A stretch of DNA of 64,000 nucleotides, taken from NCBI GenBank assembly GCA_041737385.1, contig JBGSRU010000005.1:128-64127 (forward strand), in the 5' to 3' direction. A program made the position numbers and the translations under genes. Shown here piece by piece: positions 4,009 through 64,000 of this stretch (its first letter is position 1; every line of letters starts with the position of its first letter). This DNA is from Candidatus Saccharimonadales bacterium (GTDB taxonomy: Bacteria > Patescibacteriota > Saccharimonadia > Saccharimonadales > SZUA-47). Below the pieces are notes generated by a model. That model worked only from the letters and a program-made list of their open reading frames with translations. It was not told the DNA's origin and made no database searches.

Positions 4009-4048
4009 TATAAATTTTTCACATCCGTAGTCTAGTAAAAGAGGTAAA

Positions 4049-4105: not shown

Positions 4106-4130
4106 GGTATACTCACATAAAGGACGCTTT

Positions 4131-5429: not shown

Positions 5430-5481
5430 ATAGATGAAAAATTTATAATATCTTCCTCGGCTGGATTCTTTAAGCTGATTT

Positions 5482-6001: not shown

Positions 6002-6066
6002 TGCAAGGAAGCGTTCCTGGTTGAATATATACTTATTAACGCGAGTGCTAATGGTTACATTTATTT

Positions 6067-6093
6067 GTTTACAGTAAGCTGCCCAGTGTAAAC
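6067..6093. promoter_or_regulatory. 27-bp palindromic site GTTTACA-N13-TGTAAAC, copy 2
   Basis: gtttacagtaagctgcccagtgtaaac, upstream of the PIN/antitoxin pair on the minus strand. Confidence 0.4.
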
Positions 6094-7001: not shown

Positions 7002-7171
7002 TGTAAACTCCTTGTTCAAACTATAGTTTAACAGAGGTGTTTGATATTTAATAGATGATATCTGATATTTGAGAGGAGCTTGAAGCTACAACTATATTAA
7101 TTATCAAGTATCAGAAATTAAGTATTCTGAAGCGTTATGTAGGTTTTTTAGTTGTTCCTACCCATAACTTA

Positions 7172-19511: not shown

Positions 19512-22500
19512 ATGCACATAAGACAGGGGTCTCGTCATGGTATACGAGGGTTACTTCAGGTCGTTAGGCCTGTATTTTTGATGCTGAAAAAGTTTTATTT
19601 TTCTCTATTATTTTTCGCGTGTTTTTACTTAGAGCTATATAGTGCGCGCTTATTCGCTCGTTTTGTTGTTTTGAGTGTCGCTCTGCTCCGCTTTCTTCAT
19701 AGTAAAACAGTGAGAAGGTTGGATGAACGACTTACTCGTCGCAGTAACCCATATCGAAAGTGGAGCAGTTGGCGGTTTTCACAGCCACTCCAGAAACTAA
19801 CACTTGGAGTATATAGTTTGCTAATTGGGACGCTGCTGTTCTCGCAGCTACAAACAATACTCGCGGCGCCTGATCTGCTCGATATCTGGAACTTCGCAAC
19901 CCCTGCTAACTACACAATAGATAACGGGTTGCAGACAAACGGTACAAGTCTAGAAATGAAACCGCAGAATTACGTAAGCGACGCAAATACAGCTGCACTA
20001 TTTCACTTTGATGAGTCATCTGGTGTCTCGGCTGTCGATAGCTCGAGTAACGGCAATAACGGTACGATCAACAATAGTTCGTTTGTTGGTGGTCAGTTAT
20101 TCAACGGGTTAGAGCTTAACAACACAAATGATTATGTGTCAGTACCCGATTCCACATCTATTTCACTCAACCAGCAGAACAGTTTAGAAGCTTGGACAAA
20201 ATTAAGCACTAGTTTTGATTCGACAAATCACGACAGACGGCAGTCAATTATAGACAAAGGTGATTATCAGCTCTATTATGACAACGAAACTGGAAAAATT
20301 ACTTATGAGTTAGCTAACGGATCGTCAAATACGTGGAATCAAGAAGCAGGGAATGGGGTACAGAATAGCTGGACAACTAGTAGTAGTAGAACGGTGACTT
20401 CAAGTGCGGCAATAGGGTCCAGTGTGTATGTTGGCCTAGGAAATCAAACAACTGACGCGGCAGTCTGGCGATGGGACGGAGGCGTATGGACTCGAATCGG
20501 TGGCGACGGACTCAATAATTCTTGGCAGTCACAGACATACGAAGATGTTTACTCGATGACGACCGACGGTACGAACCTGTATGTTGGACTTGGCGTCACT
20601 GCTGGAGACGGTGAAGTGTGGATGTGGAACGGTGCAACGTGGACCAAAATCGGCGGTGACGGTATAAATAACGGCTGGCAGGTGAGTACGTTTGAAACGA
20701 TCTGGGCGCTTGATTATTTTGGTGGAACTTTGTACGCGGGCCTTGGCTCTAGCGCAAACGACGGCGAAGTTTGGTCGTGGAATGGCACAACCTGGACCAA
20801 AATCGGCGGCGATAGCCTAAACTCTGGCTGGACAACTAATTATGAAATAGCAGGAACACTTACAAATGATGGCACAAACCTGTATGCAGGCTTGGGGGTC
20901 AGTACGGGCGACGCTGAAATCTGGCGCTGGAACGGTACTGTGTGGACCAAAATCGGCGGCGACGGCCTAAATACCAGCTGGAATACTAGCTATGAAACAG
21001 TACGTACACTTAAGTACTTTTCCGGAACATTGTACGCTGGTCTCGGTGACAGTGCTGGAGACGCCGAAATCTGGACCTGGAACGGTACTGCTTGGTCACA
21101 AATCGGCGGCGACGGCTTAAGTGGAAGTTGGGCCACAAACTACGAAGGTGTTTATGCAATAGGAACTGACGGAACTAACATTTATGCCGGTCTTGGTACG
21201 GGTAATGGTGACGGCGAAGTATGGCGGTTAAGCGCAGGAGTGTGGTCACAAATCGGCGGCGACGGCTTAAGCGCTGGCTGGTCTACTAATGAGGGCGATG
21301 TAGTTCAGACGTTAGTAAATATTGGATCTACCGTGTATGCGGGAACGTACGATACTGGCGGCGGTGGCTATTTGTCTTCTTGGAATGGCACAACATGGAC
21401 AAGGCTAGGTGGCCAATATGTAAATAAAAGCTGGGGATTTTTCGGTCAAGGAACCGTGGAGGTTATGCAGGCGGCGGGTGAATACTTGTACGCTGGTATG
21501 GGCAATACGCTTGGGTCGGCCCAGGTGTGGCGATTTGATGGAGCAAACTGGGAGCTAGTGGGTGGACAAGGTGTAAACAGCAGTTGGAGCGAAAACACTT
21601 ATGAAACTATAACTAGTATGAGTTCCCATAATGGTAATTTGTACGCCGGCCTTGGTAACAGCGCGAATGACGGCGAAGTTTGGATGTGGAACGGCACAAA
21701 TTGGACCAAAATCGGTGGCGACAGCCTAAACTCTGGCTGGACCACAAACTTCGAAGAAGTGAATGCACTGGCTTCGTATAATGGTAATTTGTACGCCGGC
21801 CTTGGTAACAGCGCGAATGACGGCGAAGTTTGGATGTGGAACGGCACAAATTGGACCAAAATCGGTGGCGACAGCCTAAACTCTGGCTGGACCACAAACT
21901 ATGAACGAGTAAGCTCTCTAGGAGTATTTAATGGCCAGCTTGTAGCTGGTCTCGGTGCAAGTGCGGGAGACGCTGAGGTTTGGACCTGGAACGGTACTGT
22001 GTGGACCAAAATCGGTGGCGACAGCCTAAACTCTGGCTGGACCACAAACTATGAACAAGTTGAAGCGATAATTCCATACAATAATAGCTTGCTTGTAAGT
22101 TTAGGAAATACAGCCGGAGACGCTGAAGTCTGGTCCTGGAACGGTACAGTATGGACTAAAATAGGCGGCGATGATTTGAACGGTAGCTGGACAGATGGTA
22201 CATATGAAAGAGCCAGAACTCTAGCTGTGTATAACGGTGATGTTTACGCCGGTCTAGGCAGTTCTAGTGGTGACGGTGAGGTATGGAGATATCGAGATAA
22301 TTCGTGGACAAAGTTGGCGGGAAATAATGTAAATGGTTCCTGGTCAAACACGATAGAAGAAGTCGAGGCGTTTAGCGCTTATAAAGGCAAGCTCTATGCT
22401 GGTACGGGTAATACCGCAAATGCCGACGGGGCTGTTTGGAGCATCGGCAATAATGGGTTTTTGCAGTCAACTACTAGTAGTTTCGACACAAGCTGGAGAC

Positions 22501-25500
22501 ATATCGCTGCAACCTATGACGGTGTAACGATGAAATTGTTTGTGAACGGTGTCCAAGAATCAGCAACTTCTAAGTCCCTAACTTTGCCGGACAGTAATCG
22601 TCCGCTATTAATCGGGAATGGGTACGGAGGACGCGAATATGGTAAACCGTTGGCGAGCTTTGAAGGAATACTAGACGAAGTACGAATTAGTAACATTGCT
22701 CGCTCCAGCTTTATATCTAAGCCATATTCTCAGAGCCCCCAAGTGGTCTCGCCTACCACATCTGTGAGAAAAATCGGGGTTGAGCAGTGGGACTCATTTG
22801 TTGCGAACGAAACAGCAAATGGCGGCTCAATACGGTATCGTTTATCAAACAATGGCGGCGCTAGCTGGCAGTTCTGGAATGGCGCAAACTGGGTAGCGTC
22901 TAGTTCTCTAGCAGAGTCAAATCCTCAAGCTATCATTAGTGCAAATGTGGCAGAATTTCCTGTAACTTTTGATGGTTTCCTTTGGCAGGCAATTCTGCAG
23001 AGCGATGGAAACCAAAATGTAACCTTGAACAATCTTACTTTGCAGTCAACTTCTGATACAACCTCGCCGACAACTAATGCAGCAAATATTGTTGCCACCA
23101 AAACAAACGGGGGCAGTGCGCTGGCATCAAACGGCTGGACTAATAGTGGCTCTCCAAAATTCACTTGGGATCCAGGTATCGATAGCGGATCTGGAATTCT
23201 TGGCTACTGCGCTTATTTGGGGCTAGATAATTCAGCCGATCCCGTAACAACTGCAGGGTTGCTTGGAGTATCATCAGTAGCAACCGGCGGAAACTGTCAG
23301 TTTATTGTTTCTGGTGAACAGTTGGATACAGCGACGGCAGGGTACCTTTCCAGCCCACTTACGACTTCATCTGCGCCTTACTATTTGACGCTAAAAGCGA
23401 TAGATAAAGGCGGAAATATTTCAAGCACATCAGAACAATTTTTCTTCAGGTTCGATAATACGCCGCCAAGTAATCCTAGTTTTGTAAGCGCACCGTCTGG
23501 ATTCGTAAATGATAAAGCCGTAACCCTAACCTGGCCTACAGCTGGTGGTAGTGCCCCACAGGACGCCAACTCGGGACTTGCTGGACTGCAATATAACATC
23601 GCTAATACGGGATGGTATGGAGATATTCATAGTGGTACCGGCGATGCTTCAGATCTTTTGATAAACGACGGCAGTTATACGATGCAAGATCCACCTGATT
23701 TTACCAATTTAGTCGATGGTATTAACAATGTAACTTTCAGAACGTGGGATGTTGCTGGTAACGTGACAATAAACTATACGACTGCGACGATTAAGCTAAA
23801 CACTTCTGGGGCTCCGTCAGAACCGCAGAATCTGCAAGCATCACCGCCTACAAATGTTGTTAACGCTTTTAGTTATAGTTGGAATGCGCCGGCTTCGTTT
23901 ATTGGTGATAGCAATAATATTCAGTACTGCTATACGGTCAACACCATCCCGACTAGTGGTTCATGTACCTTTACTAGTGGTGGTGTTACGTCACTTGGAT
24001 CAGGTCCATATGCTACTCAACCGGGAGTGAACACGTTGTACGTTGTCGCTCGTGATGAGTCAAACAACATTAACTATGCGAGTTTTAGTTCAGTAAACTT
24101 TACTGCCAATACGCCATCACCAGGAATTCCACTGAACGTAGATATTGTCGATGTTTCGATTAAAGTCACGAATAACTGGCGTTTAGCTTTAACGTGGGAA
24201 GAGCCGACGAATACGGGTGCGGGCATAGCAAGTTACAAAATCTATCGCTCAACAGACAATACAAGCTTTTCTCAAATTGGTAGCAGCTCAAGCACCACTT
24301 ATATTGATGCTGGATTGTCCCAGCAACGCTACTATTACTACGTTATTGGTTGTGATAGTACTAATAATTGTGGTGCAGATTCTGCTCGTATTAACGAACT
24401 GCCAACTGGCAAATTCACCTCGCCAGCTAGTCTGACTGCAGATCCTGTCGTTACAAATGTCACCACTAAAAAAGCGCTAATAAGCTGGAGTACTGATAGG
24501 CCAAGTGATTCAAGAATCGCAATCGGTACGACAAGCGGTACGTATAGCTCAGCTGAAGTTGCGAACTCTGAGCAGCTCACCGCTCACAATATCCAACTCG
24601 ATAATCTGAGTGCGGCAACAACGTATTACTACGTTGCAAAATGGACTGATGAGGATGGAAATATTGGTGCTAGCCAAGAGTACACGTTTATTACTGCTCC
24701 GGCTCCAACAATTAAAGAAGTATCGGTGCTTAAAACTACACTTAACAACTCCCTGATTCAATTTACCTCACGTAACGCAGCAAAAGTCGATCTAGTTTAT
24801 GGCAAGTCAGAATCTTTCGGTGGTGTCGTCAGCGTCAATACGTCAATCGAAGAATCTACCTATAGTGTTGATCTCAACTTACTTGATGATGGTGCAAAAT
24901 ACCTATTTAAAATCGTATCGTACGACAGTGAAGGTAATAGTTATGATGGTAATATATTCTCGTTCTCAACACCTCCTCGTCCACGCATAAATAATCTCCG
25001 CTTCCAGCCAATTGACGGTGAGCCAACAAGTACCCAGAGCGTCACTTGGCAGACAAATGTCCCGTCAACTACCAGTATCACCTACGGTAAAATTGATACT
25101 ACTGGTACTGTTTCACAAGAGAATGTTCTGGTTACAAATCACGAAATAGTTATCAGGAATCTACAAGACGATAGCGACTATTTCTTGGTTGCACAAAGTC
25201 GTGACGGTGATGGTAATCTAGCTATCTCAGACAGACAAGTATTTAGAACTGCCTTGGATACGAGACCACCGAAAATTAGTGATATCGTCATAGAAACATC
25301 TATCAGAGGGACAGGTGCAGAGGCCAGAGGCCAAGTAATTGTATCGTGGCGAACTGATGAGCCAGCCACCAGTCAAGTCGCCTATAGCGAAGGAAGCAAC
25401 GCAGTGTCTTTCAACAATAGAACTTCTGAAGGCAGCGGACTCGGTACTGAACATATTGTTATCGTGTCTGACTTACCAACTTCGCGAGTTTATAGCATCC

Positions 25501-25628
25501 AACCTATTGCGAAAGATCGTTCTAGTAATGAGGGCAGTGGTGAAGTGCAGACAGCAATCATAGGAAGAGCATCTGACAGCGTACTCACTATAATATTGAC
25601 AACTTTGCAGAGAGTATTTGGGTTTTAA
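19512..25628 (+). CDS. giant surface protein: N-terminal TM, split LamG domain enclosing about 13 propeller-type repeats, then multiple FN3/Ig-like domains
   Basis: 2038-aa ORF. LamG_3 N-half ALFHFDESSG..DSSSNGNNGT..DYVSVPDS..LEAWTKL. About 13 repeats of the form YAGLG...GDxEVWxWNGxxWTKIGGDxLNxxW. LamG C-half SWRHIAATYDGVTMKLFVNG...GILDEVRISNIARS. FN3-like segments, e.g. ISWSTDRPSDSRIAIG..TTYYYV. Confidence 0.85.
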   Translation: MHIRQGSRHGIRGLLQVVRPVFLMLKKFYFSLLFFACFYLELYSARLFARFVVLSVALLRFLHSKTVRRLDERLTRRSNPYRKWSSWRFSQPLQKLTLGVYSLLIGTLLFSQLQTILAAPDLLDIWNFATPANYTIDNGLQTNGTSLEMKPQNYVSDANTAALFHFDESSGVSAVDSSSNGNNGTINNSSFVGGQLFNGLELNNTNDYVSVPDSTSISLNQQNSLEAWTKLSTSFDSTNHDRRQSIIDKGDYQLYYDNETGKITYELANGSSNTWNQEAGNGVQNSWTTSSSRTVTSSAAIGSSVYVGLGNQTTDAAVWRWDGGVWTRIGGDGLNNSWQSQTYEDVYSMTTDGTNLYVGLGVTAGDGEVWMWNGATWTKIGGDGINNGWQVSTFETIWALDYFGGTLYAGLGSSANDGEVWSWNGTTWTKIGGDSLNSGWTTNYEIAGTLTNDGTNLYAGLGVSTGDAEIWRWNGTVWTKIGGDGLNTSWNTSYETVRTLKYFSGTLYAGLGDSAGDAEIWTWNGTAWSQIGGDGLSGSWATNYEGVYAIGTDGTNIYAGLGTGNGDGEVWRLSAGVWSQIGGDGLSAGWSTNEGDVVQTLVNIGSTVYAGTYDTGGGGYLSSWNGTTWTRLGGQYVNKSWGFFGQGTVEVMQAAGEYLYAGMGNTLGSAQVWRFDGANWELVGGQGVNSSWSENTYETITSMSSHNGNLYAGLGNSANDGEVWMWNGTNWTKIGGDSLNSGWTTNFEEVNALASYNGNLYAGLGNSANDGEVWMWNGTNWTKIGGDSLNSGWTTNYERVSSLGVFNGQLVAGLGASAGDAEVWTWNGTVWTKIGGDSLNSGWTTNYEQVEAIIPYNNSLLVSLGNTAGDAEVWSWNGTVWTKIGGDDLNGSWTDGTYERARTLAVYNGDVYAGLGSSSGDGEVWRYRDNSWTKLAGNNVNGSWSNTIEEVEAFSAYKGKLYAGTGNTANADGAVWSIGNNGFLQSTTSSFDTSWRHIAATYDGVTMKLFVNGVQESATSKSLTLPDSNRPLLIGNGYGGREYGKPLASFEGILDEVRISNIARSSFISKPYSQSPQVVSPTTSVRKIGVEQWDSFVANETANGGSIRYRLSNNGGASWQFWNGANWVASSSLAESNPQAIISANVAEFPVTFDGFLWQAILQSDGNQNVTLNNLTLQSTSDTTSPTTNAANIVATKTNGGSALASNGWTNSGSPKFTWDPGIDSGSGILGYCAYLGLDNSADPVTTAGLLGVSSVATGGNCQFIVSGEQLDTATAGYLSSPLTTSSAPYYLTLKAIDKGGNISSTSEQFFFRFDNTPPSNPSFVSAPSGFVNDKAVTLTWPTAGGSAPQDANSGLAGLQYNIANTGWYGDIHSGTGDASDLLINDGSYTMQDPPDFTNLVDGINNVTFRTWDVAGNVTINYTTATIKLNTSGAPSEPQNLQASPPTNVVNAFSYSWNAPASFIGDSNNIQYCYTVNTIPTSGSCTFTSGGVTSLGSGPYATQPGVNTLYVVARDESNNINYASFSSVNFTANTPSPGIPLNVDIVDVSIKVTNNWRLALTWEEPTNTGAGIASYKIYRSTDNTSFSQIGSSSSTTYIDAGLSQQRYYYYVIGCDSTNNCGADSARINELPTGKFTSPASLTADPVVTNVTTKKALISWSTDRPSDSRIAIGTTSGTYSSAEVANSEQLTAHNIQLDNLSAATTYYYVAKWTDEDGNIGASQEYTFITAPAPTIKEVSVLKTTLNNSLIQFTSRNAAKVDLVYGKSESFGGVVSVNTSIEESTYSVDLNLLDDGAKYLFKIVSYDSEGNSYDGNIFSFSTPPRPRINNLRFQPIDGEPTSTQSVTWQTNVPSTTSITYGKIDTTGTVSQENVLVTNHEIVIRNLQDDSDYFLVAQSRDGDGNLAISDRQVFRTALDTRPPKISDIVIETSIRGTGAEARGQVIVSWRTDEPATSQVAYSEGSNAVSFNNRTSEGSGLGTEHIVIVSDLPTSRVYSIQPIAKDRSSNEGSGEVQTAIIGRASDSVLTIILTTLQRVFGF
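20364..22467 (+). repeat. in-frame array of about 13 repeats of about 47-50 codons each (blade-like)
   Basis: The W.WNG..W..IGGD motif recurs 13 times in the translation. Confidence 0.85.
21628..21900 (+). repeat. perfect 123-bp direct duplication with 150-bp period, inside the repeat array
   Basis: 21628-21750 is identical to 21778-21900 (ataatggtaatttgtacgccggccttggtaacagcgcgaatgacggcgaagtttggatgtggaacggcacaaattggaccaaaatcggtggcgacagcctaaactctggctggaccacaaact). The 3' about 50 bp recur again near 22003-22050. Confidence 0.95.
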
Positions 25629-51286: not shown

Positions 51287-51362
51287 TTCAATTCTAATCT
51301 GGGTATTAAAAAGTCAGAACCGAATACCAGCTCTGACTTCATCTATCACAGCTTGGCTCACC
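51287..51362. repeat. junction repeat B1
   Basis: ttcaattctaatctgggtattaaaaagtcagaaccgaataccagctctgacttcatctatcacagcttggctcacc. By eye about 70 percent identical to B2. Read on the minus strand: GAGCCAAGC, then hairpin AGTCAGA/TCTGACT, then a T-run. Confidence 0.7.
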
Positions 51363-53558: not shown

Positions 53559-53633
53559 TTCAATTTCAGTCTGGGCCCAAAAAAATTATGACCGAATCAA
53601 AGTTCTGACTTCATCTATTACGGCTTTGCCATC
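53559..53633. repeat. junction repeat B2 (degenerate)
   Basis: ttcaatttcagtctgggcccaaaaaaattatgaccgaatcaaagttctgacttcatctattacggctttgccatc. Confidence 0.65.
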
Positions 53634-53660
53634 TAGAGCATGCCTCTTAGTCGCTTGTGT

Positions 53661-53686
53661 ACTATAGGGGTGGAGGACGTTCGAAC
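53661..53686. repeat. junction repeat fragment C1 (..GGAGGACGTTCGAAC)
   Basis: The gaggacgttcgaac block is shared with 56847-56860. A near-copy gaaggacgtttgaac lies at 54221-54235. Confidence 0.6.
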
Positions 53687-53691
53687 GAGTA

Positions 53692-54932: not shown

Positions 54933-54948
54933 AGAATAATTATAACCC

Positions 54949-54990
54949 AAACAAAAACACTATGTTTCTATAGTGCTTATGCTTGACTCC
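54949..54990. repeat. junction repeat A1 (left part)
   Basis: aaacaaaaacactatgtttctatagtgcttatgcttgactcc. On the minus strand it reads as hairpin CACTAT/ATAGTG plus TTTTTGTTT. Confidence 0.85.
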
Positions 54991-55240
54991 AGAGTGAGAT
55001 AGTCCAGTAGACTATTGCAAGGGGACACACTCTAGAAAACTTGTTTTCTAAGACGTGGTGACGAGGTCGCGGAACGTGACTGGATATAGGTCACACAACA
55101 AATCTGTGCGCCGAGTGTACTCGGGCAACATGCTTGTTATCGAACCTAGCGACCCACTGTCTTGCAAGGCAATCCAGGGTCACAGGTGAATCAGTCCCGA
55201 AAATAAACTAAAAACAGACCCTGATGGGTCTGGTCTTAGT
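54991..55240 (-). ncRNA. candidate structured RNA nested inside junction repeat A1 (about 250 nt, unknown class)
   Basis: No ORF. At least 6 local hairpins: agagtg/cactct, atagtc/gactat, tagaaaac/gttttcta, gtgac/gtcac, ccgag/ctcgg, cagaccc/gggtctg. Flanked by ttgactc and ttggctc. Confidence 0.3.
55198..55232 (-). terminator. rho-independent terminator downstream of the 356-aa gene
   Basis: On the minus strand: CAGACCC-ATCA-GGGTCTG followed by TTTTTAGTTTATTTT. Confidence 0.6.
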
Positions 55241-55270
55241 TTGGCTCGCAGTTGTGGACATGATGCGAAC
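55241..55270. repeat. junction repeat A1 (right part, hairpin H1)
   Basis: ttggctcgcagttgtggacatgatgcgaac matches A2 positions 56482-56510. Confidence 0.8.
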
Positions 55271-55318
55271 TGTGTAGATAGACTTTTTTATATTTTTTAT
55301 TTCATTCAAACCTTGTAG

Positions 55319-56389
55319 CTATTGTGTTTTATCGACTTCTTTCACGAATATCCATTCAGAATTAGTATCTGTACGAGTAAGATAGATCAGAGGAAATTCA
55401 GATAAACCATCCACACTATAATTTACTTCAACATTCTTATCATCCTTTTCCCACACAATCCTGGAAACCTTAACATCTGAGATGTTTTTAATAGACTCAA
55501 TTTTTGACACGATTGCGGCTTGCTGTTTCTTAGCTTCATTATAGCTCGCAATACTTACACAGTTTAGTCCATCAAAATTGTTTATGCCACTATGAGTAGC
55601 TTGGCATAACAAATACTGGTTCGTGTAGGTATTCTCGGAATAATACTCATTGTCTTCGGGAGCTATCAAATCTGAAAGAACGAAACCTTTACTTTTTATA
55701 TATTCTTCAATTTCAGCTTTGGTAACATCAGATGCTTGATAGCGAACCCCGAATAACTTCCTTATACTTAAAGGAAGTTCAGTAAGATATGCATTTCCGG
55801 GTTGTTCAGTTAAATATTCTGGATTAGGAAGAGATTCAGACCATTCTGTAAGACCTTGGATGGTTTCTTCGATAGAGCTCCAGCTAGTATCTGCGAGATT
55901 ATTCGATACATTTGTAGTTGTTTCTTTGTTCTCATCCACTGGTGTCAAAGCTACAATTGCAATTAAAAGTCCCACCAAAAATATCGCAGATAAAATTAAA
56001 CTTATCTTGAGCCATTTTCTGGATTTTTTCTGAAGATTATCCATCGAAGGATAACTATTATTCTTAGTTTTATCTTTAGCATAACCTATGTAGATAAAAA
56101 TAATACCTACAAAAAAAGGTATTAAGTATAAGTAATTTTGGGCTAAAAATATCATCGAACCAGATGTAATTGAAATCAAATAACCAATAATGTAGTACAT
56201 CCTTGCAGTACTAGATAACTTAACATTAGGAGGTTGCTGAGGTTGCTGAGGTTGCTGAGGTTGCTGAGGTTGCTGAGGTTGCTGAGGTTGCTGAGGTTGC
56301 TGAGTAACCTCAGTTTGCTGTGGAGGTGTACTGCTAGTCGTATTTATATTATCCTGTTGTTGATTATCTTCATTATTATCCATAAACAC
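55319..56389 (-). CDS. membrane protein with N-terminal Q/P-rich low-complexity region
   Basis: 356-aa ORF with (QQP)x8, several predicted TM segments (not counted) and a C-terminal soluble domain. No family recognised. Confidence 0.6.
   Translation of the reverse strand: MFMDNNEDNQQQDNINTTSSTPPQQTEVTQQPQQPQQPQQPQQPQQPQQPQQPPNVKLSSTARMYYIIGYLISITSGSMIFLAQNYLYLIPFFVGIIFIYIGYAKDKTKNNSYPSMDNLQKKSRKWLKISLILSAIFLVGLLIAIVALTPVDENKETTTNVSNNLADTSWSSIEETIQGLTEWSESLPNPEYLTEQPGNAYLTELPLSIRKLFGVRYQASDVTKAEIEEYIKSKGFVLSDLIAPEDNEYYSENTYTNQYLLCQATHSGINNFDGLNCVSIASYNEAKKQQAAIVSKIESIKNISDVKVSRIVWEKDDKNVEVNYSVDGLSEFPLIYLTRTDTNSEWIFVKEVDKTQ
56232..56303. repeat. perfect 9-bp tandem repeat (ggttgctga) x8 encoding (QQP)8
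   Basis: Read directly from the sequence. Confidence 0.95.
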
Positions 56390-56447
56390 TCCAGTTATTA
56401 TTTAAACTATAGCATTATAGAGATAAGTAGGGAATATATAGAGAGCA

Positions 56448-56510
56448 AAACAAAAACACTATGTTTCCATAGTGCTTATGCTTGGCTCGCAGTTGTAGAC
56501 ATGATGCGAA
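56448..56510. repeat. junction repeat A2 (uninterrupted form)
   Basis: aaacaaaaacactatgtttccatagtgcttatgcttggctcgcagttgtagacatgatgcgaa. Confidence 0.85.
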
Positions 56511-56779: not shown

Positions 56780-56796
56780 ATAGCCATTATCTCACA

Positions 56797-56860
56797 AAAC
56801 AAAAACACTATGTTTCTATAGTGCTTATGCTTGGCTCTCTGCAGTTGAGGACGTTCGAAC
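56797..56860. repeat. junction repeat A3
   Basis: aaacaaaaacactatgtttctatagtgcttatgcttggctctctgcagttgaggacgttcgaac. Confidence 0.85.
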
Positions 56861-56910
56861 TAGTCTTTTTGACGATTCATTCTGTAAACTATAAGTGGTA
56901 TTATCGTATT

Positions 56911-57294: not shown

Positions 57295-57314
57295 TTCTAT
57301 CTCCAGCTTGGGGT

Positions 57315-57370
57315 AAACAAAAACAGAAGCCTTACGACTTCTGTTATTTATAACGCTTATGCTTGGCTCC
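57315..57370. repeat. junction repeat A4 (left part; same flanks, different hairpin stem)
   Basis: aaacaaaaac-AGAAGccttacgaCTTCT-gttatttataacgcttatgcttggctcc. Confidence 0.8.
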
Positions 57371-57513
57371 GGAGACTGGATGGGAGGGACCTAATTCGCC
57401 TGTTTGTCGTAGTACGACAGGGAATTAGCGAACCAATTGCTACGCAATAATCTGGTTCGAGGCCAGAACTCGGAAGTAAATAAAATAGCCCCACAAATGT
57501 GAGGCAATTTATT
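57371..57513 (-). ncRNA. candidate structured RNA nested inside junction repeat A4 (about 140 nt, cloverleaf-like)
   Basis: Three hairpins closed by a stem: ctaattcgcctg..cagggaattag, ttgc-tac-gcaa, and tctgg-ttcgagg-ccaga. The terminal hairpin is fully paired only as minus-strand RNA (GCCUCACA/UGUGGGGC with a U-G pair). Confidence 0.3.
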
Positions 57514-57542
57514 TGGCTCGCACTGGCAAACGAACTGCGAAC
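57514..57542. repeat. junction repeat A4 (right part, hairpin H1 variant)
   Basis: ttggctcgcactggcaaacgaactgcgaac. It has the same TCGCA/TGCGA stem as A1b and A2 but a different loop. Confidence 0.75.
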
Positions 57543-57811
57543 GGCTAGTATGGACTACGACAAAAGCGAAGTTCGTAACATCAAGGGACTGCTACTTAGC
57601 GTGGCATAGCCCCCCTATGCCTTGACCTTTGATATTTCAGAAAGCTCGTAAACGCACATACTACCTAAAAATGTGTCGCTATCAAAAAATCATTTGTTTT
57701 CCGAAATAGCCCAACAACTACAACGCACTAACAGTGGTAGCTTTGTTGGGAATAATTGTTAGAAAAAGACGATATTTTCAGCACATACCCTTACGGCTGT
57801 AAAATAGAAAT

Positions 57812-58762
57812 ATGACAAAGCAGATAACAAAGAAACAGCACTTCGCACCACGCTTTTATTTCAAACGGTTTGCTGTTGATAATATGTTACAGACTTTAGA
57901 TATTCAAAAAGGCAAACTTATAAAAGCACGACCTTATAGCGGTGTTTGTTATGCCGACTTTTACTACGCTGTTGAAACTGGAAAAGAAGACGAAACAAGC
58001 CAAGTATTTGAACAGTATTTTAGCGACATTGAAGATAAGTTTGCCAAAGAGTATGACGCCATCGTTGACGCAATATGGAACTATCGCCCACTAACAGACC
58101 AGCAGTTAGATATTCTAGCGTGGTTTATGGCTTCCCTTTGGATTAGAAGTCCGCATATGCGAAGACAGGTAAACAAGACTATGGCTGATGGTATGAAGCA
58201 AATAACTACATTAATGGCTTCACACCCAAACTTTACCGAAGGGGCTAAAGAAGGTTTAGAAAAAGAGGGACATAAAGTATCTGATGAGCAGATTGAAAAC
58301 GCTAGAAAGACGCTTGAAAGTGGCGAGTATGAACTAACCTTTGAGAATAACATCAACCACCTAAATCTGATTGCACACTGTGAAGAGTTTCATAGGTGGT
58401 TTCTTATAAAAAAATGGCGGTTTTATTTAGCCAAAGGCTCAAAAAAGTTCATAACTACCGATACACCAGTGATTGAAGTATTCAATAAAACTGGTAAAAC
58501 AATGATTGAAAAAATGTACAGCAACCATATAGCCCAAAGACGACACTACTTTGCTTTGACACCCGAAATACTAATTGAGCTTATTGACCCTCTAACTCCT
58601 GGCAAGAAGCAAAAACGGCACGCACTATCAGACGATAGAGCGGTGATTGAAATAAACCGCCTACTTGTTATCTACTCAAAAGATTATGCCTACGCCAATG
58701 ACAAAGAGTATCTTGAAGATTTACTACAATTCTATACAGGCGTACCACAGGAAGTGATATAG
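57812..58762 (+). CDS. DUF4238-family protein (family of the single-gene anti-phage system Rst_DUF4238)
   Basis: The N-terminal KKQHFAPRFYFKRFA matches the H(Y/F)xP(Q/R)FYL(K/R)xF signature I recall for DUF4238. Size 316 aa. Confidence 0.6.
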   Translation: MTKQITKKQHFAPRFYFKRFAVDNMLQTLDIQKGKLIKARPYSGVCYADFYYAVETGKEDETSQVFEQYFSDIEDKFAKEYDAIVDAIWNYRPLTDQQLDILAWFMASLWIRSPHMRRQVNKTMADGMKQITTLMASHPNFTEGAKEGLEKEGHKVSDEQIENARKTLESGEYELTFENNINHLNLIAHCEEFHRWFLIKKWRFYLAKGSKKFITTDTPVIEVFNKTGKTMIEKMYSNHIAQRRHYFALTPEILIELIDPLTPGKKQKRHALSDDRAVIEINRLLVIYSKDYAYANDKEYLEDLLQFYTGVPQEVI

Positions 58763-58856
58763 GGGGGGGTAGTCGCCCCTTGTTCTAGCGTTTAGAGACT
58801 CCGCCGTGTATATACCTAATTTGTGGGAGCAGAAAAAACCAAGTGTTTTTCTATAC

Positions 58857-59609
58857 CTAGACTGACAACCTTTTGTCTTCGTATTCTTTCTGTTCAATCG
58901 CCTTTTGTTTTATCTTATCAAGTATGTCCCTCGGTCCAGATAGGTAGCTCTCAAACTCTTTAATGTTTGAGTCCTTAATCCAAAGCTGACCCTCGCCAAC
59001 ATTGCCCCTATGCTGACCTTTTGAGAAATACTTATTACTTTCAACATCGTGGCTAGAAAGCACCCAATACCTAATAGCGTCACGCCATACGCCGACCCAG
59101 ACAAAAACATCACAGTGTGCAGGTTTTATCTGCTGAAAGTTCATATCAAAACCGTGTGTAGAGTCGCTAGAAAGGGCTTTGTTAATAAGCGAGTCGCCAC
59201 TTTTTCTTTTGACAGCCCGTGAAGCTTTTACTTCAATGCGAACACCCTCATACCAAAAATCATAATCGCCTGCATAAGCGTCGTGGTAGTCTTTTGAGGG
59301 ACGCTTTAGCTCAGGTGCAAGCTCATTGAGGTGTCGTTGAGCCCACGTTTCGCCGAAAGTTCTAGGTGCTGTAATTTCAAAAATATACAGATACTTGTTT
59401 TTCTCAAGATAGGCATTTCTTATCTCAAGGTATTGGTCTAGGTTTAATATGTCTTCCGCAATCAAGTGGCTAATAACATACTCAAACTTGTTAAAAGGAA
59501 ACACAGAGTAAAGACTGTCTAGTGCTTCATCGCTCAAATCATACTTATCGCCACACTTGTCGTGTAACCTTTTAATTTCTGCCTTTAATTCTTCAATCAG
59601 TTGTTCCAT
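58857..59609 (-). CDS. putative type II restriction endonuclease (PD-(D/E)xK)
   Basis: GDYDFWYEGVRIEVKAS fits D..(11-13)..ExK. Overlaps the methylase stop by 17 nt. Confidence 0.45.
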   Translation of the reverse strand: MEQLIEELKAEIKRLHDKCGDKYDLSDEALDSLYSVFPFNKFEYVISHLIAEDILNLDQYLEIRNAYLEKNKYLYIFEITAPRTFGETWAQRHLNELAPELKRPSKDYHDAYAGDYDFWYEGVRIEVKASRAVKRKSGDSLINKALSSDSTHGFDMNFQQIKPAHCDVFVWVGVWRDAIRYWVLSSHDVESNKYFSKGQHRGNVGEGQLWIKDSNIKEFESYLSGPRDILDKIKQKAIEQKEYEDKRLSV

Positions 59610-61335
59610 ATACTTCCTTCTTTATACACTTTATCTCAATAGCACTTATCTTGTAATAGTTGTAGATAAAATCTTGTAGCTTTTTATCGTCTGTTTTTCC
59701 TAAAATAACGTCATCAACCATATTGCTAACAACCTTATCTGTCTTGCTGTCTATTTCAGGAAACGGTAGCTGTAACAAATTGCCTTTCAAGATTTTAATC
59801 TCACGAAATAGCTTCATATACAAATACTGATAAAGTTCGGAGTTAAGAAAAGCAGAAACAGACTTTACCGACATATTAGGCACGTTTGGAACTAGTATAT
59901 TTGCACTATTTAGAAAAAGGCTTGCCGAATCATCAACAGCGAAGACTAGTTTTTTAGAAATGAACTTATAGACAAGTTTTGGTTTTGCTCTGTAAATCTC
60001 GTCTTTGGCAACCTGTTGAAGTTGACTGCGGTCATATCTTATGTAGTACTTTGAAGGCTTCAAAGTATAAGGAGCAATTTCTTTACCTGTGTATATTTTT
60101 TCTAGGTCTTTCTTTGCTTCAAGATGAAGCTTCTCTTTATTGCTACCCGTAACAATCCCTAATGCCCAAATACTCTCACTCAAATCGTAACGCTTTTGTT
60201 CTAGAACCTTTTCTATGATTGACTCGTCTGTTGAGTCAGATAGTCGGAAGATATAGTTAGGGTTATCGCTATAAACTGCCTTTTCTACGCCCCACGAACG
60301 ATTAGCTACGTCAATTTCAACTTCACTTGAGTTGCCTGAATAGTTTGCCGTGAGTGCCACATACTTAGTAGTTACTCCGCTAAACAGGTCAGCGTACATT
60401 TTTATAGCAACTAAATCAGCTTTGGTCAGCAGATAATGACGAATATCTCTGTGAGTTTTTACATTAAGAATTGACTCGGGTAGCAGAAACCTTAATTGAC
60501 CAGATTTTTTCAATCGTCTGTGTGCTTCTACCAAGAAACAAGAAAATGTTTCCCCTGATATAATCTCAGGATAATTTTTTGTATTGGTTACTGAAGCACC
60601 CCAAGGTGGATTAGTAACTATATAGTCAAACTTTAGGTCTAAATCTTTTCCGTTAGAGCTAAGAAAGTCATCATTGAATATGTTGACGACCTTTGCCTTA
60701 GGAAACCTTAGAAAATAATTGAACTTAGCAATCATAACTGCGATAGGGTCAATGTCAGTTGCAAAGATATTTTCTGGCTTGATATTAGGTATGTTCAAGA
60801 GGTAAACAAGACTACCGCAACAAGGGTCTAATACTTTACTCGCCGATGTAAGTTTTATGTCTTCAACCATATCTCTCACGACACTCTTAGGCGTGTAGTA
60901 AGAGCCTTGGGCATTTTTGACACCCTCTTGTAATAGACATTGGTAAATTAAGCCCAGTAAATCACTTTCGTCTTTCGGAAAATCGTCTATATTCAAATCT
61001 TCAATAACTGAATACCCACAGTCGTCAAGAAACTTGCTAATCAAAGGGTTACTAGCTACATTTGAGTCTTTTACAATGCCGTTTAATGCTAATAGTTTTA
61101 CGCCAACTGAAAATAACACTTTACCTGTGTCGTCATACTTTTCAGCAAGCTTTTGAGTTATGTCTTCAATTTTCTTAATGTTCGGCTTGCTGTCAAAGTA
61201 CTCAACAGGAGTTATACGCTTTGTGGAAAGCCTTTTATTCGCCCTTGATACTAGCTTGCCTTCGGTTGTGTTTACCCCTAGCTTTTCCCAGTTTCTCTTC
61301 GTGGCTTCTGATACTTGGTTATTTGTTTTCGGCAT
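59593..61335 (-). CDS. N6-adenine DNA methyltransferase (gamma class, Eco57I/TaqI-like with C-terminal specificity domain)
   Basis: Motif I VLDPCCGS lies upstream of motif IV TNPPWG. Confidence 0.85.
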   Translation of the reverse strand: MPKTNNQVSEATKRNWEKLGVNTTEGKLVSRANKRLSTKRITPVEYFDSKPNIKKIEDITQKLAEKYDDTGKVLFSVGVKLLALNGIVKDSNVASNPLISKFLDDCGYSVIEDLNIDDFPKDESDLLGLIYQCLLQEGVKNAQGSYYTPKSVVRDMVEDIKLTSASKVLDPCCGSLVYLLNIPNIKPENIFATDIDPIAVMIAKFNYFLRFPKAKVVNIFNDDFLSSNGKDLDLKFDYIVTNPPWGASVTNTKNYPEIISGETFSCFLVEAHRRLKKSGQLRFLLPESILNVKTHRDIRHYLLTKADLVAIKMYADLFSGVTTKYVALTANYSGNSSEVEIDVANRSWGVEKAVYSDNPNYIFRLSDSTDESIIEKVLEQKRYDLSESIWALGIVTGSNKEKLHLEAKKDLEKIYTGKEIAPYTLKPSKYYIRYDRSQLQQVAKDEIYRAKPKLVYKFISKKLVFAVDDSASLFLNSANILVPNVPNMSVKSVSAFLNSELYQYLYMKLFREIKILKGNLLQLPFPEIDSKTDKVVSNMVDDVILGKTDDKKLQDFIYNYYKISAIEIKCIKKEVYGTTD

Positions 61336-61340
61336 ATTCC

Positions 61341-61529
61341 CTAATTACTTTTTTCAATAAACTTTATTAAATCGACTTTTTTGTATCGCATAGCCTTACG
61401 ACTACCTAGACGGAACGCCTTCAACGTGCCGTTTCTGTCCCAATTACGAAGCGTTGGTTGACTGACTTGTAGAAACTTGCTTGCTTGGGCGAGTGTCAGA
61501 TATTCAGGTTCGTCATTTTTAGCGTTCAT
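61341..61529 (-). CDS. excisionase/MerR-type HTH DNA-binding protein
   Basis: YLTLAQASKFLQVSQPTLRNWDRNG is an HTH_17-type motif. 62 aa. Confidence 0.7.
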   Translation of the reverse strand: MNAKNDEPEYLTLAQASKFLQVSQPTLRNWDRNGTLKAFRLGSRKAMRYKKVDLIKFIEKSN

Positions 61530-61548
61530 ACTACCAATATCATATAAT

Positions 61549-61572
61549 AAGTACTAAGTACTTGGAAGTACT
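61549..61572. promoter_or_regulatory. three AAGTACT repeats in a divergent promoter region
   Basis: aagtact at 61549, 61556 and 61566. TATAAT at 61544-61549. Confidence 0.4.
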
Positions 61573-61590
61573 AAGAAAAGACGTAGCGAA

Positions 61591-62340
61591 ATGGCAGATG
61601 ACAAAAGTAGTAAAGAAGTTTCACTAAACCTAGATGACCCAAAATATAGTAAGGGGTTGTCCGTTGACGAGTGGCAAAAACTTTCCAAGCAAAACCCTAC
61701 TACTCTAACGCCTTCACAACAAAAAACACTTACCCAAGCAAACGATAGTATTAGAGAAGCCACGAAAGGCATAAGCACCCAACTGGCAAGTATAGTAAAG
61801 GGTGTTTCAATGCCCGACATACGCTCACTTATGCCAGATATTCCAAAGTCGCCAGCCTTGTCTATTTCCAGCCTATCGTTACCACCGATTGAAACCTATC
61901 AGCCAAACTTTGATGATATAGACTTTACACCAGATACAACGATGGTTGATAACCAAATCAAACAGACCGCTTTATTAGAACGCCTGCTTGAAGTCCAAAG
62001 CCAACAGCAACAAAATAGCGATTTGATGAAACTGATTGAGCCACGTTATGACCGCAAGAAACGTGTTATCACGTTCGCCAATACTCAAACAAGGCTCGTT
62101 GCTGACAGCGATAATGAAATTATATGTAAAAAGTTATTTTGGGACGGACGCCCCGTAAGACGCCCTGTTGAAAAAGGCGACATTATGGAACTGCTAGGTA
62201 CTACTGACAAGAAGGCTTTCTATAACAAGGTTGCTTCCTTGAATAAACTCATTGAAAAAACGACAGGTGTTGATAAGCTATTTGATTTTGTTGATAAAAA
62301 ACTCTGGTTCAATACCAAATACGTAGAATTACCTCTGTAA
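61591..62340 (+). CDS. hypothetical protein
   Basis: 249-aa ORF. No family recognised. Confidence 0.5.
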   Translation: MADDKSSKEVSLNLDDPKYSKGLSVDEWQKLSKQNPTTLTPSQQKTLTQANDSIREATKGISTQLASIVKGVSMPDIRSLMPDIPKSPALSISSLSLPPIETYQPNFDDIDFTPDTTMVDNQIKQTALLERLLEVQSQQQQNSDLMKLIEPRYDRKKRVITFANTQTRLVADSDNEIICKKLFWDGRPVRRPVEKGDIMELLGTTDKKAFYNKVASLNKLIEKTTGVDKLFDFVDKKLWFNTKYVELPL

Positions 62341-62376
62341 GACGTCTGCGGACACCTACTTTCACATACTGGAAGT

Positions 62377-62541
62377 ATGGACAACCAAATAGAGCCAAAG
62401 CCAAATACAACCGTCATTGACGAGCCTGAATTGGTATTAGACGAAGACGAGCAGTTTCAACTCGCCAAGTTTCTTGACGCTCTTTTGGAAGCCGATATGA
62501 CCAATAAAAGTAACGAAAGGCAACGCAAGCAATGTTTGTAA
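62377..62541 (+). CDS. small acidic hypothetical protein (54 aa)
   Basis: Hand translation gives MDNQIEPKPNTTVIDEPELVLDEDEQFQLAKFLDALLEADMTNKSNERQRKQCL*. Below the track's cutoff. Confidence 0.3.
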   Translation: MDNQIEPKPNTTVIDEPELVLDEDEQFQLAKFLDALLEADMTNKSNERQRKQCL

Positions 62542-62831
62542 GTGAAGTCAGCGTAATGCCCGTCAAGCCAAACAATGGCTTGATAGCCATAGCCAGCGTT
62601 GTTATAAACGACTGTATCTACCTCAATTCTATTGCCGTTTATACCAAACTAGACGGCTCGTATCGCCTGCTTTACCCGACAAAACAAGTAGGTAATAAGT
62701 CGGTTGGTTATCACTACCCAATCAACCGACCAACTAGCAGGTTGATAGAAGACGCCGTGTTCAAAAAATGTAGCGAACTATTTCAAGGAAGTAACGATGA
62801 TAGACACGGTAAAAATACTTTTGACTTATAG
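62532..62831 (+). CDS. SpoVG-like protein
   Basis: VSEVSVMPVKPNNGLIAIASVVINDCIYLNSIAVY parallels the SpoVG N-terminus (..V.....G.L.A.ASI..D..F.V..I.V). Confidence 0.5.
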   Translation: MFVSEVSVMPVKPNNGLIAIASVVINDCIYLNSIAVYTKLDGSYRLLYPTKQVGNKSVGYHYPINRPTSRLIEDAVFKKCSELFQGSNDDRHGKNTFDL

Positions 62832-63921
62832 CAGTCAGCCAAAATGGGTAACGGAAGCCAAGCTATTCACTAACGTAGACGCAACTAAAGGCGTCTTCGT
62901 GGCATACAACAACCCAAGTAGTGCCTATAAGAAACTAGGCATTTACCAGCCACGCCTTACATATACCGAAAGACCAAGAGGTAGGCATATCAAGTCGTAT
63001 CAACTTGCCGTTGAGTTTTCCGCACCGAAGCTACTTTTCAGCAACAACTTCACGGAACTAACGGACGCCGACTTTGACGCCGTTATTGCCAAGCTGTCAG
63101 AAGTACTACGCACGACTTATGGCGTTTGGGTATTTCCGCACTTATTGACTAATGCCCAAGTGGGTAAAATAGACTACTCAAAAAACATCGTGTTTGATGA
63201 CCACACACCAGTTTCAACCATTACAGAAATACTGCGTAAAGCTGACATATCACGCCGTTACGATGTTCAGCATACCAACTTCAAGAATGGCGGACACGTC
63301 TATCACATACACACTAACAGCCTTGATATTGCCTTCTATGATAAGGTTGCCGATTTACGCCAAAACAAAGTCAGTGAAAAGCGTAGTTATGAAAAAGGTG
63401 GCTATACACAGTTGAGCCTACTAGACGAATTAGAAAAGCAAAAGACAGTCAGCGTTGCTCGTTTTGAGATACGACTAAATGGCGTTGCCAAACTACGCAA
63501 AGAACTAAAAGTTATTGGTGTTGATAGTACCGACATTACCTTTCGCACACTTTTCAAGACCGACATATCACGCAAGGTACTACTACGGCACTGGAAGAAC
63601 ATATTTGATGAACTGCCCAAAGCACCGTTTGCCGTATTAGACACTGCTGAACAAAACCTTATTTCGTATAAACAATCATACCCATACGCCAAGCCAGCCG
63701 AAACAGCCTTTGCTGTAATGCTCGCTATGATACGCAAAGACCACGATGACGAACGCTATGTTCGCAATGTCATAGAAGAATTGTTTGGTAAGCACACCTA
63801 CTACCGATACAAACGCAACGGACGCTCGCCACCTACCAAAACCCAACTCAAAACTTTACTACATATAGAAGCCACACTGACAGAAATGAAACCTGTGAGT
63901 ATTGACGACTATACGCTGTAA
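62797..63921 (+). CDS. replication initiation protein, Rep_trans / gene II-like (rolling-circle type)
   Basis: MIDTVKIL N-terminus. LDIAFYDK and ARFEIRL resemble the YDK and R.E.el motifs of Rep_trans. VYHIHT could be an HUH-like motif. Confidence 0.55.
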   Translation: MIDTVKILLTYSSQPKWVTEAKLFTNVDATKGVFVAYNNPSSAYKKLGIYQPRLTYTERPRGRHIKSYQLAVEFSAPKLLFSNNFTELTDADFDAVIAKLSEVLRTTYGVWVFPHLLTNAQVGKIDYSKNIVFDDHTPVSTITEILRKADISRRYDVQHTNFKNGGHVYHIHTNSLDIAFYDKVADLRQNKVSEKRSYEKGGYTQLSLLDELEKQKTVSVARFEIRLNGVAKLRKELKVIGVDSTDITFRTLFKTDISRKVLLRHWKNIFDELPKAPFAVLDTAEQNLISYKQSYPYAKPAETAFAVMLAMIRKDHDDERYVRNVIEELFGKHTYYRYKRNGRSPPTKTQLKTLLHIEATLTEMKPVSIDDYTL

Positions 63922-64000
63922 ATTATAAGGTATTAGTAGCAAATATCATCAAATATCACTATAATTCAACTATGAAAAGGAATAGCCACTATGAAAAACG

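Follow-up and report, generated by a model that had tools for sequence, protein, structure and literature searches.

A palindromic, tRNA-linked module at the borders of DNA inserted downstream of tRNA genes, found in a Saccharimonadales contig and at other metagenome loci

We examined a 64,000-nt stretch of the Candidatus Saccharimonadales bacterium assembly GCA_041737385.1 (contig JBGSRU010000005.1, positions 128 to 64,127; hereafter the window), in which the two halves of a junction repeat, A1, are parted by a 251-bp segment at 54990-55240. A scan of the window placed the left half of this repeat (AACACTATGTTTCYATAGTGCTTATGCTTG) at 54956, 56455 and 56804, and the right half (TTGGCTCGCAGTTGT) at 55241 and 56482. 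The A1 segment is edged by TTGACTC (54983-54989) and TTGGCTC (55241-55247). At junction A2 the halves are contiguous, without an insert, and at A4 (57312-57541) the repeat is interrupted at the equivalent point by ~143 bp, a shorter relative of the A1 insert. Both inserts belong to a widespread family of modular, tRNA-linked palindromic elements (hereafter units), present in Saccharibacteria and in many uncultured bacteria, each of them a long imperfect palindrome of a tRNA's last third. Units are gained and lost at tRNA ends and delimit inserted DNA, with or without cargo genes.

A preliminary description of the window, made from its letters, had portrayed the A1 insert as a discrete, structured, non-coding segment between two repeat halves, and this was borne out across its 251 bp. 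The sole frame is a 44-codon one starting with GTG (55055-55189), which is not a credible open reading frame (ORF), and folding of 54950-55300 gave z = -6.1 on the minus strand (none of 100 shuffles equalled it) and z = -2.9 on the plus strand. The minus strand is the relevant orientation for this insert. Rfam 15 returned no match at gathering score anywhere in the window, and at E<=10 it returned a single 9.9-bit chance match located outside the insert; ARAGORN called no tRNA or tmRNA gene in the window. The Rfam search that the preliminary description had proposed therefore yielded no family for the insert at either threshold, and its failure to match the insert by eye to RNase P, signal recognition particle, 6S or tmRNA agrees with both searches. 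The unit holds only the last third of tRNA-Asn, in both orientations, and no full tRNA. The collinearity that had been noticed between the A1 and A4 inserts is also real: it covers the terminator and the start of the unit, with differing stems (CAGACCC/GGGTCTG in A1 versus GCCTCACA/TGTGGGGC in A4).

The edges of the insert are tRNA sequence. On the minus strand, GAGCCAA corresponds to the last bases of tRNA-Asn (..GGA-G-CCA) plus one A. Scanning one genome per species, we found the pattern ATARYGCTTATGCTTGRCTC at 51 loci, ~45 of them titled Saccharibacteria/Saccharimonadales or Patescibacteria; at ten of the 51 the pattern stands directly behind an intact tRNA-Asn(GTT) ending in GAGCCA. Because the motif adjoins a complete tRNA-Asn gene at these ten loci, GAGCCA in the window is recognised as a tRNA-Asn end. 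The sequence AGCATAAGC followed by a hairpin and TTTTTGTTT is the conserved tRNA-Asn trailer and terminator, and the GCATAAGC trailer likewise follows intact tRNA-Asn genes in many Saccharibacteria metagenome-assembled genomes (MAGs). The junction repeats are remnants of tRNA-Asn end, trailer and terminator, stacked downstream of the tRNA-Asn gene. The supposed 7-bp duplication flanking the insert is consequently not a target-site duplication, since TTGGCTC is the reverse complement of GAGCCAA, the tRNA-Asn end and the core common to every junction.

Read along the minus strand, a unit opens with a terminator hairpin and an antisense copy of the neighbouring tRNA's positions ~44-76; an apical hairpin then leads to positions 44-58 in sense orientation, ending in GGTTCG, after which come a second hairpin (H2) and positions 59-76 (..CCA), again in sense orientation. 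The native tRNA trailer and terminator stand behind the unit, and elsewhere the unit lies immediately behind an intact tRNA gene. H2 is ~42 nt long and interrupts the sense arm precisely at the T-loop (GGTTCG / H2 / RTCC...). The features of the four junctions in the window are as follows.

55248-55269, minus strand: A1 half-site TTCGCATCATGTCCACAACTGC, T-loop-like (TTCG...), adjoining the core.
55241-55247, minus strand: A1 proximal core GAGCCAA (TTGGCTC on the plus strand), the tRNA-Asn 3' terminus plus A.
55206-55241, minus strand: A1 terminator hairpin T1, AACTAAGAC-CAGACCC-ATCA-GGGTCTG-TTTTTAGTT, which opens the unit.
55178-55199, minus strand: A1 antisense arm CGGGACTGATTCACCTGTGACC, matching in degenerate form the reverse complement of the final third of tRNA-Asn (CGGAGACTGGATTCGAACCAGCGACC).
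55157-55177, minus strand: A1 apical hairpin CTG-GA-TTGC-CTT-GCAA-GA-CAG, at the palindrome's centre and specific to the family.
55140-55154, minus strand: A1 sense copy of tRNA-Asn ~44-58, GGTCGCTAGGTTCGA (in the tRNA, GGTCGCTGGTTCGA), by alignment.
55097-55138, minus strand: A1 H2, AACAAGCATGTTGCCCGAG-TACA-CTCGGCGCACAGATTTGTT, inserted at the T-loop position.
55070-55085, minus strand: A1 tail ATCCAGTCACGTTCCG (intact form ATCCAGTCTCCGGAGCCA), a decayed, degenerate copy of tRNA-Asn 59-72.
54990-55069, minus strand: A1 distal ~80 nt with small hairpins at 55030-55052 and 54999-55015, ending in CTCTGGAGTCA.
54983-54989, minus strand: A1 distal core GAGTCAA (TTGACTC on the plus strand), one mismatch from GAGCCAA.
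54947-54982, minus strand: A1 left half, comprising the native tRNA-Asn trailer GCATAAGC, terminator CACTATAGAAACATAGTG and TTTTTGTTT.
56446-56510, minus strand: A2 junction, uninterrupted, with half-site, GAGCCAA, trailer and terminator.
56795-56861, minus strand: A3 junction, AGTTCGAACGTCCTCAACTGCAGA-GAGCCAA-GCATAAGC plus terminator.
57363-57513, minus strand: A4 unit, a variant of the module with the same layout and a different H2.
57478-57513, 57452-57476 and 57435-57451, minus strand: A4 terminator, antisense arm and apical hairpin.
57429-57434 and 57391-57428, minus strand: A4 GGTTCG and its different H2.
57363-57381, minus strand: A4 tail, the exact tRNA-Asn 3' 18-mer plus A.

The A1 and A4 arms align to the genome's own tRNA-Asn; for the A1 antisense arm the alignment is CGG-GACT-GATTC--ACCTGTGACC against CGGAGACTGGATTCGAACCAGCGACC. 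Its H2 has the family core GCCCGAG-loop-CTCGGCGCAYAGAT, with AACAA/TTGTT as a compensatory variant of the lower stem, and the apical hairpin reads CYGRCAGC-TTT-GCTGRCRG in other units. A covariance model built for the family had its sole match in the window at 55088-55156 on the minus strand (57 bits, the lowest among full-length units; E = 5e-13, which is rough, as are all E-values of this model, owing to short calibration). The distal ~80 nt have no counterpart in canonical units and no match to the model, and are probably the debris of a second trailer and unit. We read the half-site at 55248-55269 as the element-derived (attP-type) half left by an earlier insertion; half-sites of the same type occur at A2 (56489-56510) and at 57520-57541, beside an island encoding a large serine recombinase.

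Covariation across aligned homologous loci, which the preliminary description had put forward as a check, is clear in H2. Among 55 distinct units, 97% of cells in the 18-pair H2 helix are paired, compared with 25-45% after a shift of the partner by 1-3 columns. Double changes occur at five pairs (92 cells), a level reached by none of 500 shuffles; at pair 22-64, for example, AU occurs 25 times, GC 19 times and UA ten times. The upper half of H2 is invariant by design of the search and nothing is concluded from it. Four of the double-change pairs (21-24/62-65) lie wholly outside the search pattern and so provide independent evidence. An invariant G.U pair is present in 54 of the 55 units and becomes an A-C mismatch on the opposite strand, and the covariance model gives 57-85 bits to sense copies and 20-25 bits to antisense ones. 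Together, the covariation, the G.U pair and the sense-strand scores indicate that it is the tRNA-sense strand that folds, and the unit's fold is selected on one strand. No T-run follows H2, which is therefore not a terminator.

The arms follow the local tRNA. In local alignments across the family, the antisense arm scores 11.9 against its own tRNA and 7.8 (standard deviation 1.9) against other tRNAs (p = 2e-15), and the sense 44-58 copy scores 9.2 and 6.8, respectively (p = 4e-9). Folded singly, units adopt a three-armed shape (z = -3.3 to -5.8). Both the closing helix, formed by the 5' segment with the tail, and the outer stem of hairpin 1 are weakly positive against cross-unit controls (p = 2e-4 and 1.5e-3); we regard these helices as likely, short of proven, and rest no conclusion on them.

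Searching with the H2 pattern GCCCGAGN{3,8}CTCGGCGCAYAGAT recovered 77 metagenome loci, ~60 of which are genuine, the remainder being chance matches in GC-rich coding sequence. Among 2.9 million viral contigs the same pattern had only two matches, both by chance in GC-rich coding sequence, and no true copy. In 39 non-redundant units, ARAGORN placed a same-strand tRNA within 330 nt upstream, mostly at 80-120 nt, and these tRNAs are of 15 kinds (Asn, Arg with two anticodons, Lys, Glu, Pro, Met, Ile, Trp, Ser, Val, Ala, Tyr, Gln and Asp). In most of the 39 loci, what follows H2 duplicates the 3' end of the upstream tRNA, starting just past the T-loop and running to CCA plus 1-3 A. A direct repeat matching the tRNA 3' end is thus present at the distal border of the inserted DNA (as the exact 18-mer in A4), and the locus resembles an insertion with a direct repeat of 18-20 bp, T-loop to CCA, on its two sides. 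Units stand in tandem at three loci (L181, L204 and L195), where the model search found further, more divergent copies. At four loci, 1.7-6.6 kb separate the tRNA from the unit; the longest of these intervals holds ordinary cargo (methyltransferase, phosphoribosyltransferase, Ham1, F420 ligase and NUDIX genes) and no recombinase. No integrase was found within the cargo blocks, the large serine recombinase near the window's array belonging to a different junction type, and no protein family (integrase, TnpB or other) was found to recur within 4 kb of units.

For tRNA-Asn, both states of the site were seen. It is empty at ten loci and filled at L095, L111, L158, L165 and others, where the conserved trailer AGCATAAGC stands behind the second copy. 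The Saccharimonadales MAG at L095 has the order tRNA-Asn, terminator, ~100 nt with GTTGCCCGAG..CTCGGCGCACAGATT as in A1, TCCGGCCTCCGGAGCCAAG (its own tRNA end repeated) and the AGCATAAGC trailer. Across ~50 Saccharibacteria loci the model found H2 only in L095 and L117, and the window has one canonical H2. Further H2 types occur at L111 and in parts of L197 and L216; with that of A4, they show the family to be wider than the search pattern. Six loci (L089, L091, L098, L101, L109 and L112) have a second kind of pseudo-tRNA-Asn segment before GAGCCAAGC (..GTGTCYCATTTGTAGC..CTGTTAA..AGTTCGTGACCTGTATGGG) in which the Asn anticodon loop is kept, a hint that another family of elements uses this tRNA end.

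Rfam run on canonical units from eight other loci reported nothing except the adjoining tRNAs, and our literature search found no description of this tRNA-linked module; the one related paper that we found describes group I introns of these tRNA genes in Patescibacteria (PMC13011429). The family is apparently new and extends the att-type repeats known at tRNA genes. The preliminary description's suggestion of novelty is thus upheld as regards known families; the uniqueness of the insert is not, as homologous units exist at ~60 other loci, the kind of copies elsewhere that it had named as counting against it.

These findings make the arrangement in the window legible. The genome's own tRNA-Asn gene lies ~1.5 kb past the window end on the minus strand (8697-8771 of contig L002 from Logan sample SRR28170464, or approximately 65.50-65.57 kb in window coordinates), and a gene for a 516-aa large serine recombinase overlaps, with its own end, the 3' end of this tRNA gene. 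From this tRNA, the minus-strand order is a GAGCC|AA core, an 8-kb island (large serine recombinase, HTH_17, Eco57I-type methylase and DUF4238), the half-site TTCGCAGTTCGTTTGCCAGTGC, GAGCCAA, the A4 insert, GAGCCAA and the native trailer. With the island subtracted, the A4 insert falls directly behind tRNA-Asn, matching the arrangement in other genomes. Beyond A4 come A3, A2 and A1, each with half-site, GAGCCAA and trailer/terminator and with one small gene between them, and further degenerate junctions lie at 51351-51359 and 53559-53690. Taken with A1-A4, these extra junctions define the region from ~51.3 kb to the tRNA as an accretion zone of tRNA-Asn-end junctions. We infer that the A4 unit, whose tail is exact and which the 8-kb island separates from the tRNA, is the native tRNA-proximal unit, displaced when the serine-recombinase island inserted at GAGCC|AA, and that the A1 unit, which the same half-site adjoins, is older and in decay. 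A1 lies ~10 kb from the tRNA-Asn gene, not at 80-120 nt, and has a degenerate tail in place of an intact 59-76 copy; on these grounds it is a displaced, decaying member of the family.

Several further observations concern this array. The island occupies window positions 57542-64000 and continues beyond (742-8771 of L002), inserted at GAGCC|AA; its methylase is of the Eco57I/TaqI N6 type, and the final codons of the recombinase gene overlap the tRNA-Asn gene on the opposite strand, both just beyond the window. The remnants at 51287-51359 and 53559-53690 have a different trailer (..GGTGAGCCAAGC-TGTGATAGATGA plus terminator), one of them also with an A3-like half-site (GTTCGAACGTCCTCCAC), and extend the stacked array to ~51.3 kb, so that it encloses ADH, TetR, DUF6326, SET and SDR genes. 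The two SRR28170464 contigs encoding the same proteins as the window (L001 and L002) end exactly at junction repeats, at ~54978 and 56804, which indicates that the repeats break short-read assemblies. An exact-protein contig look-up for empty or filled sister loci returned these two contigs only, from that one sample, both broken at junction repeats.

Other repeats in the window were also recorded. Between A1 and A2, nine tandem copies of GAGGTTGCT (56230-56310) fall in a 354-aa minus-strand ORF (55319-56383), a predicted membrane protein with a Q/P-rich repeat near its N-terminus. A 2038-aa ORF (19512-25628) contains nine to ten tandem 150-nt repeats (20487-22190; motif W-N-G-x-x-W-x-K-I-G-G-D) together with Laminin_G_3 and purple-acid-phosphatase N domains. 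Positions 3709-3835 and 6160-6286 are 84-93% identical, the former being a non-coding duplicate, 2.45 kb off, of the 3' end of a nucleotidyl-transferase gene (6153-7019), with short repeats nearby (3970-4114 and 6055-6093).

We asked what kind of element the unit could be. Our tentative preference is that the unit serves as the attachment-site module of insertions at tRNA genes that carry no integrase, and that it may act in the form of a folded single strand. The descriptive part of this reading is near certain; to the single-strand recombination part we would grant perhaps one chance in three. A circular element would carry the 44-58 copy, H2, the 59-76 copy, the terminator, any cargo, the antisense arm and the apical hairpin. 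If this element crossed over with a tRNA gene's T-loop at the boundary of H2 and position 59, exactly the observed order would result: the incoming 59-76 segment would complete the tRNA, and the host's own 59-76 segment and trailer would be displaced behind H2. On the folded single strand, most likely DNA, the paired arms would mimic the duplex T-arm/acceptor region of the target tRNA gene, and recombination would be provided in trans, as for the integron attC site or the CTX-phage attP hairpin. The idea of a single-stranded site arises because the tRNA-sense strand alone keeps the fold, the arms copy the target, and no recombinase is linked to the unit. Hairpin attachment sites have precedents in integron attC (PMC4792948) and in CTX-phage attP, which is recombined by host Xer (PMC3442271).

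Known systems share parts of this anatomy. As in the attL/attR repeats of tyrosine-integrase islands, the unit stands at a tRNA 3' end with a T-loop-to-CCA repeat, the incoming copy restores the tRNA, and there is tandem accretion with cargo genes between the repeats; unlike such islands, the insert has no integrase inside or beside it, can be as small as ~130-170 bp, and is further set apart by a copy of the tRNA end in antisense and by a pair of conserved hairpins, one of which lies exactly at the presumed crossover. Integron attC sites (PMC4792948) similarly keep hairpin structure while their arms vary, fold strand-specifically, and belong to same-orientation arrays of cassettes, including cargo-only and ORF-less ones, with the recombinase outside the cassette. 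The unit differs in having no GTTRRRY/RYYYAAC core boxes on either strand (by eye), no IntI or attI that we could find, arms that copy the target tRNA, and an array anchored on a tRNA gene. The forked hairpin of CTX-phage attP(+), from the integrative mobile elements exploiting Xer (IMEX), also consists of two inverted target-like copies on one strand that fold into a target-mimicking duplex; its integration depends on recombinases encoded elsewhere, and tandem arrays arise, as they do for units (PMC3442271). The unit, however, targets a tRNA end and not dif, has no phage genes and no true copies in viral contigs, and any link to Xer would be conjectural.

Two further element classes were compared. 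REPINs are likewise short, ORF-less, long hairpins of two inverted copies, intergenic and often terminator-like, with the mobilising protein (RAYT) encoded elsewhere; REPIN arms are one genome-wide sequence, whereas unit arms follow the local tRNA, and the unit is strictly linked to tRNA 3' ends and adds H2 and an apical hairpin. The group I introns of Patescibacteria tRNA-Asn/Asp genes (PMC13011429) occur in the same hosts and the same gene, and L111 carries both intron and unit; the unit lies behind the tRNA and not inside it, has no match to a group I model and is too small for such a ribozyme. In L111, a Saccharimonadales MAG, the tRNA-Asn gene at 5080-5530 is split by the group I intron (Rfam, 102 bits) and missed by ARAGORN, with an HNH-like ORF (..CANCHREIH) just upstream; the intron is consistent with the position-35/36 introns reported for Patescibacteria (PMC13011429).

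Several points weigh against the attachment-site reading. No recombinase is tied to units, and we saw neither an excised circle nor an insertion that could be shown to be recent. For the closing helix and hairpin 1's outer stem the margin over cross-unit controls is modest, and the antisense strand has slightly better duplex energies for the closing helix. One H2 subtype stands beside many tRNA types, so the arms must be renewed faster than H2 diverges; this is poorly explained by a classical tRNA-dedicated element, and is a problem for an RNA interpretation too. A strand-specific fold with a G.U pair fits RNA equally well as single-stranded DNA, a phage vehicle is unsupported (the exact H2 pattern had no true copy among the viral contigs searched), and the A1 copy, with its degenerate tail, may be dead.

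The alternative that survives best, which we consider possible but doubtful, is that transcription reading through the upstream terminator produces a functional RNA. The unit would then be a structured tRNA trailer able to base-pair, through its antisense arm, with the cognate tRNA or the precursor of that tRNA or, in another form of the idea, one whose conserved hairpins recruit a protein, the 3' tail (tRNA 59-76) serving as a specificity or guide segment. Such an RNA would be in keeping with the strand-specific fold, with its invariant G.U pair, compensatory changes and far higher model scores on the tRNA-sense strand, with the single-unit fold (z = -3.3 to -5.8), with the terminator behind the unit, and with the unit's constant position, co-oriented with and just downstream of a strongly transcribed tRNA gene. 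It must nonetheless contend with the strong terminator directly in front of the unit and the lack of a promoter of its own. Moreover, presence or absence at the same tRNA, tandem arrays and enclosed cargo typify insertions and not a housekeeping RNA, no known RNA family matches, and the A1 copy in the window lies 10 kb from the tRNA, behind a protein gene.

An inert scar is improbable. Here the inserts would be attL/attR debris of ordinary integrase-mediated island accretion at tRNA-Asn and their hairpins mere terminators, and the window does offer a clear accretion zone of tRNA-Asn-end junctions, a serine-recombinase island at the tRNA, and degeneracy of the A1 tail and distal 80 nt. Scars would keep neither an H2 that is conserved at ~60 loci behind 15 kinds of tRNA and shows covariation nor an antisense arm that tracks the local tRNA, and H2 has no T-run behind it; the explanation is disfavoured at the level of the family.

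We are similarly sceptical of a miniature inverted-repeat transposable element (MITE) moved by a transposase encoded elsewhere, with the arms as terminal inverted repeats ending in TGG...CCA and the 18-bp tRNA-end repeat as a long target-site duplication. The module is small (~130-170 bp) and ORF-less, occurs many times, including in tandem, and its arms are indeed inverted copies. Their sequence changes with each tRNA, though, so that a single transposase could not recognise the ends, and there is one canonical copy in the 64-kb window, with only 3 of the ~50 Saccharibacteria loci having one. The repeat boundary from T-loop to CCA is, besides, the classic crossover block of site-specific integrases.

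Least probable is the preliminary description's own proposal of a free-standing small-RNA gene, an independent minus-strand transcript between two terminators: the fold is strong and terminator-like hairpins exist at 55232-55215 and ~54977-54954 on that strand (the terminator scan called only the former, the latter coming from the fold and from homology to the called A2 terminator), but no promoter-like site was called at 55300-55200 on the minus strand, the unit begins right at the upstream terminator's T-run with no promoter space in front, and all members of the family start with that first "terminator", which is part of the tRNA or junction before the unit.

A number of other candidates were dropped: a group I intron (no model match, insert too small); a TnpB/Cas12-type guide RNA guided by the tRNA tail (no effector is present, and the target would be the cell's own tRNA gene); a retroelement primer-binding site, suggested by the 18-nt boundary at 58/59 (no reverse transcriptase, and the antisense copy exceeds 18 nt); a dif/Xer site (resemblance of only 7 nt, GCGCATA); and a casposon-type long target duplication (antisense copy unexplained). 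BLAST of the A1 insert against phage and plasmid collections gave no match, the 86 matches of the junction 15-mer to viral contigs were all by chance inside coding sequence (e.g., ribonucleotide reductase), and Pfam on the 39 window ORFs detected no recombinase (tyrosine recombinases included), TnpB or reverse transcriptase.

Saccharibacteria and their relatives have tiny genomes with few recognisable mobile elements, and gene gain in these organisms is poorly understood for this reason. The module described here borders the DNA added behind tRNA genes of at least 15 kinds, in many cases accompanied by accessory genes but by no integrase. It therefore points either to a general way of acquiring genes that has so far escaped annotation or to a structured, tRNA-linked RNA of a new class. 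Its covariance model can be used to annotate such sites, the junction repeats explain breaks in short-read assemblies, and in the window an insert in a repeat becomes a readable history of stacked tRNA-Asn insertions. More speculatively, and with a likelihood that we place low, Patescibacteria may carry an integron-like form of gene gain anchored on tRNA genes, in which cassettes, many of them empty and some carrying cargo, end in a folded single-stranded hairpin with a stem that mimics the target tRNA gene's T-arm/acceptor duplex and with H2 at the crossover point. A recombinase encoded elsewhere would join this mimic to the T-loop of the genuine tRNA gene. Patescibacteria cells are naturally competent. 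If true, this route would represent a new class of recombination site, and its folded-hairpin sites would possibly be fed by single-stranded DNA taken up by the cells.

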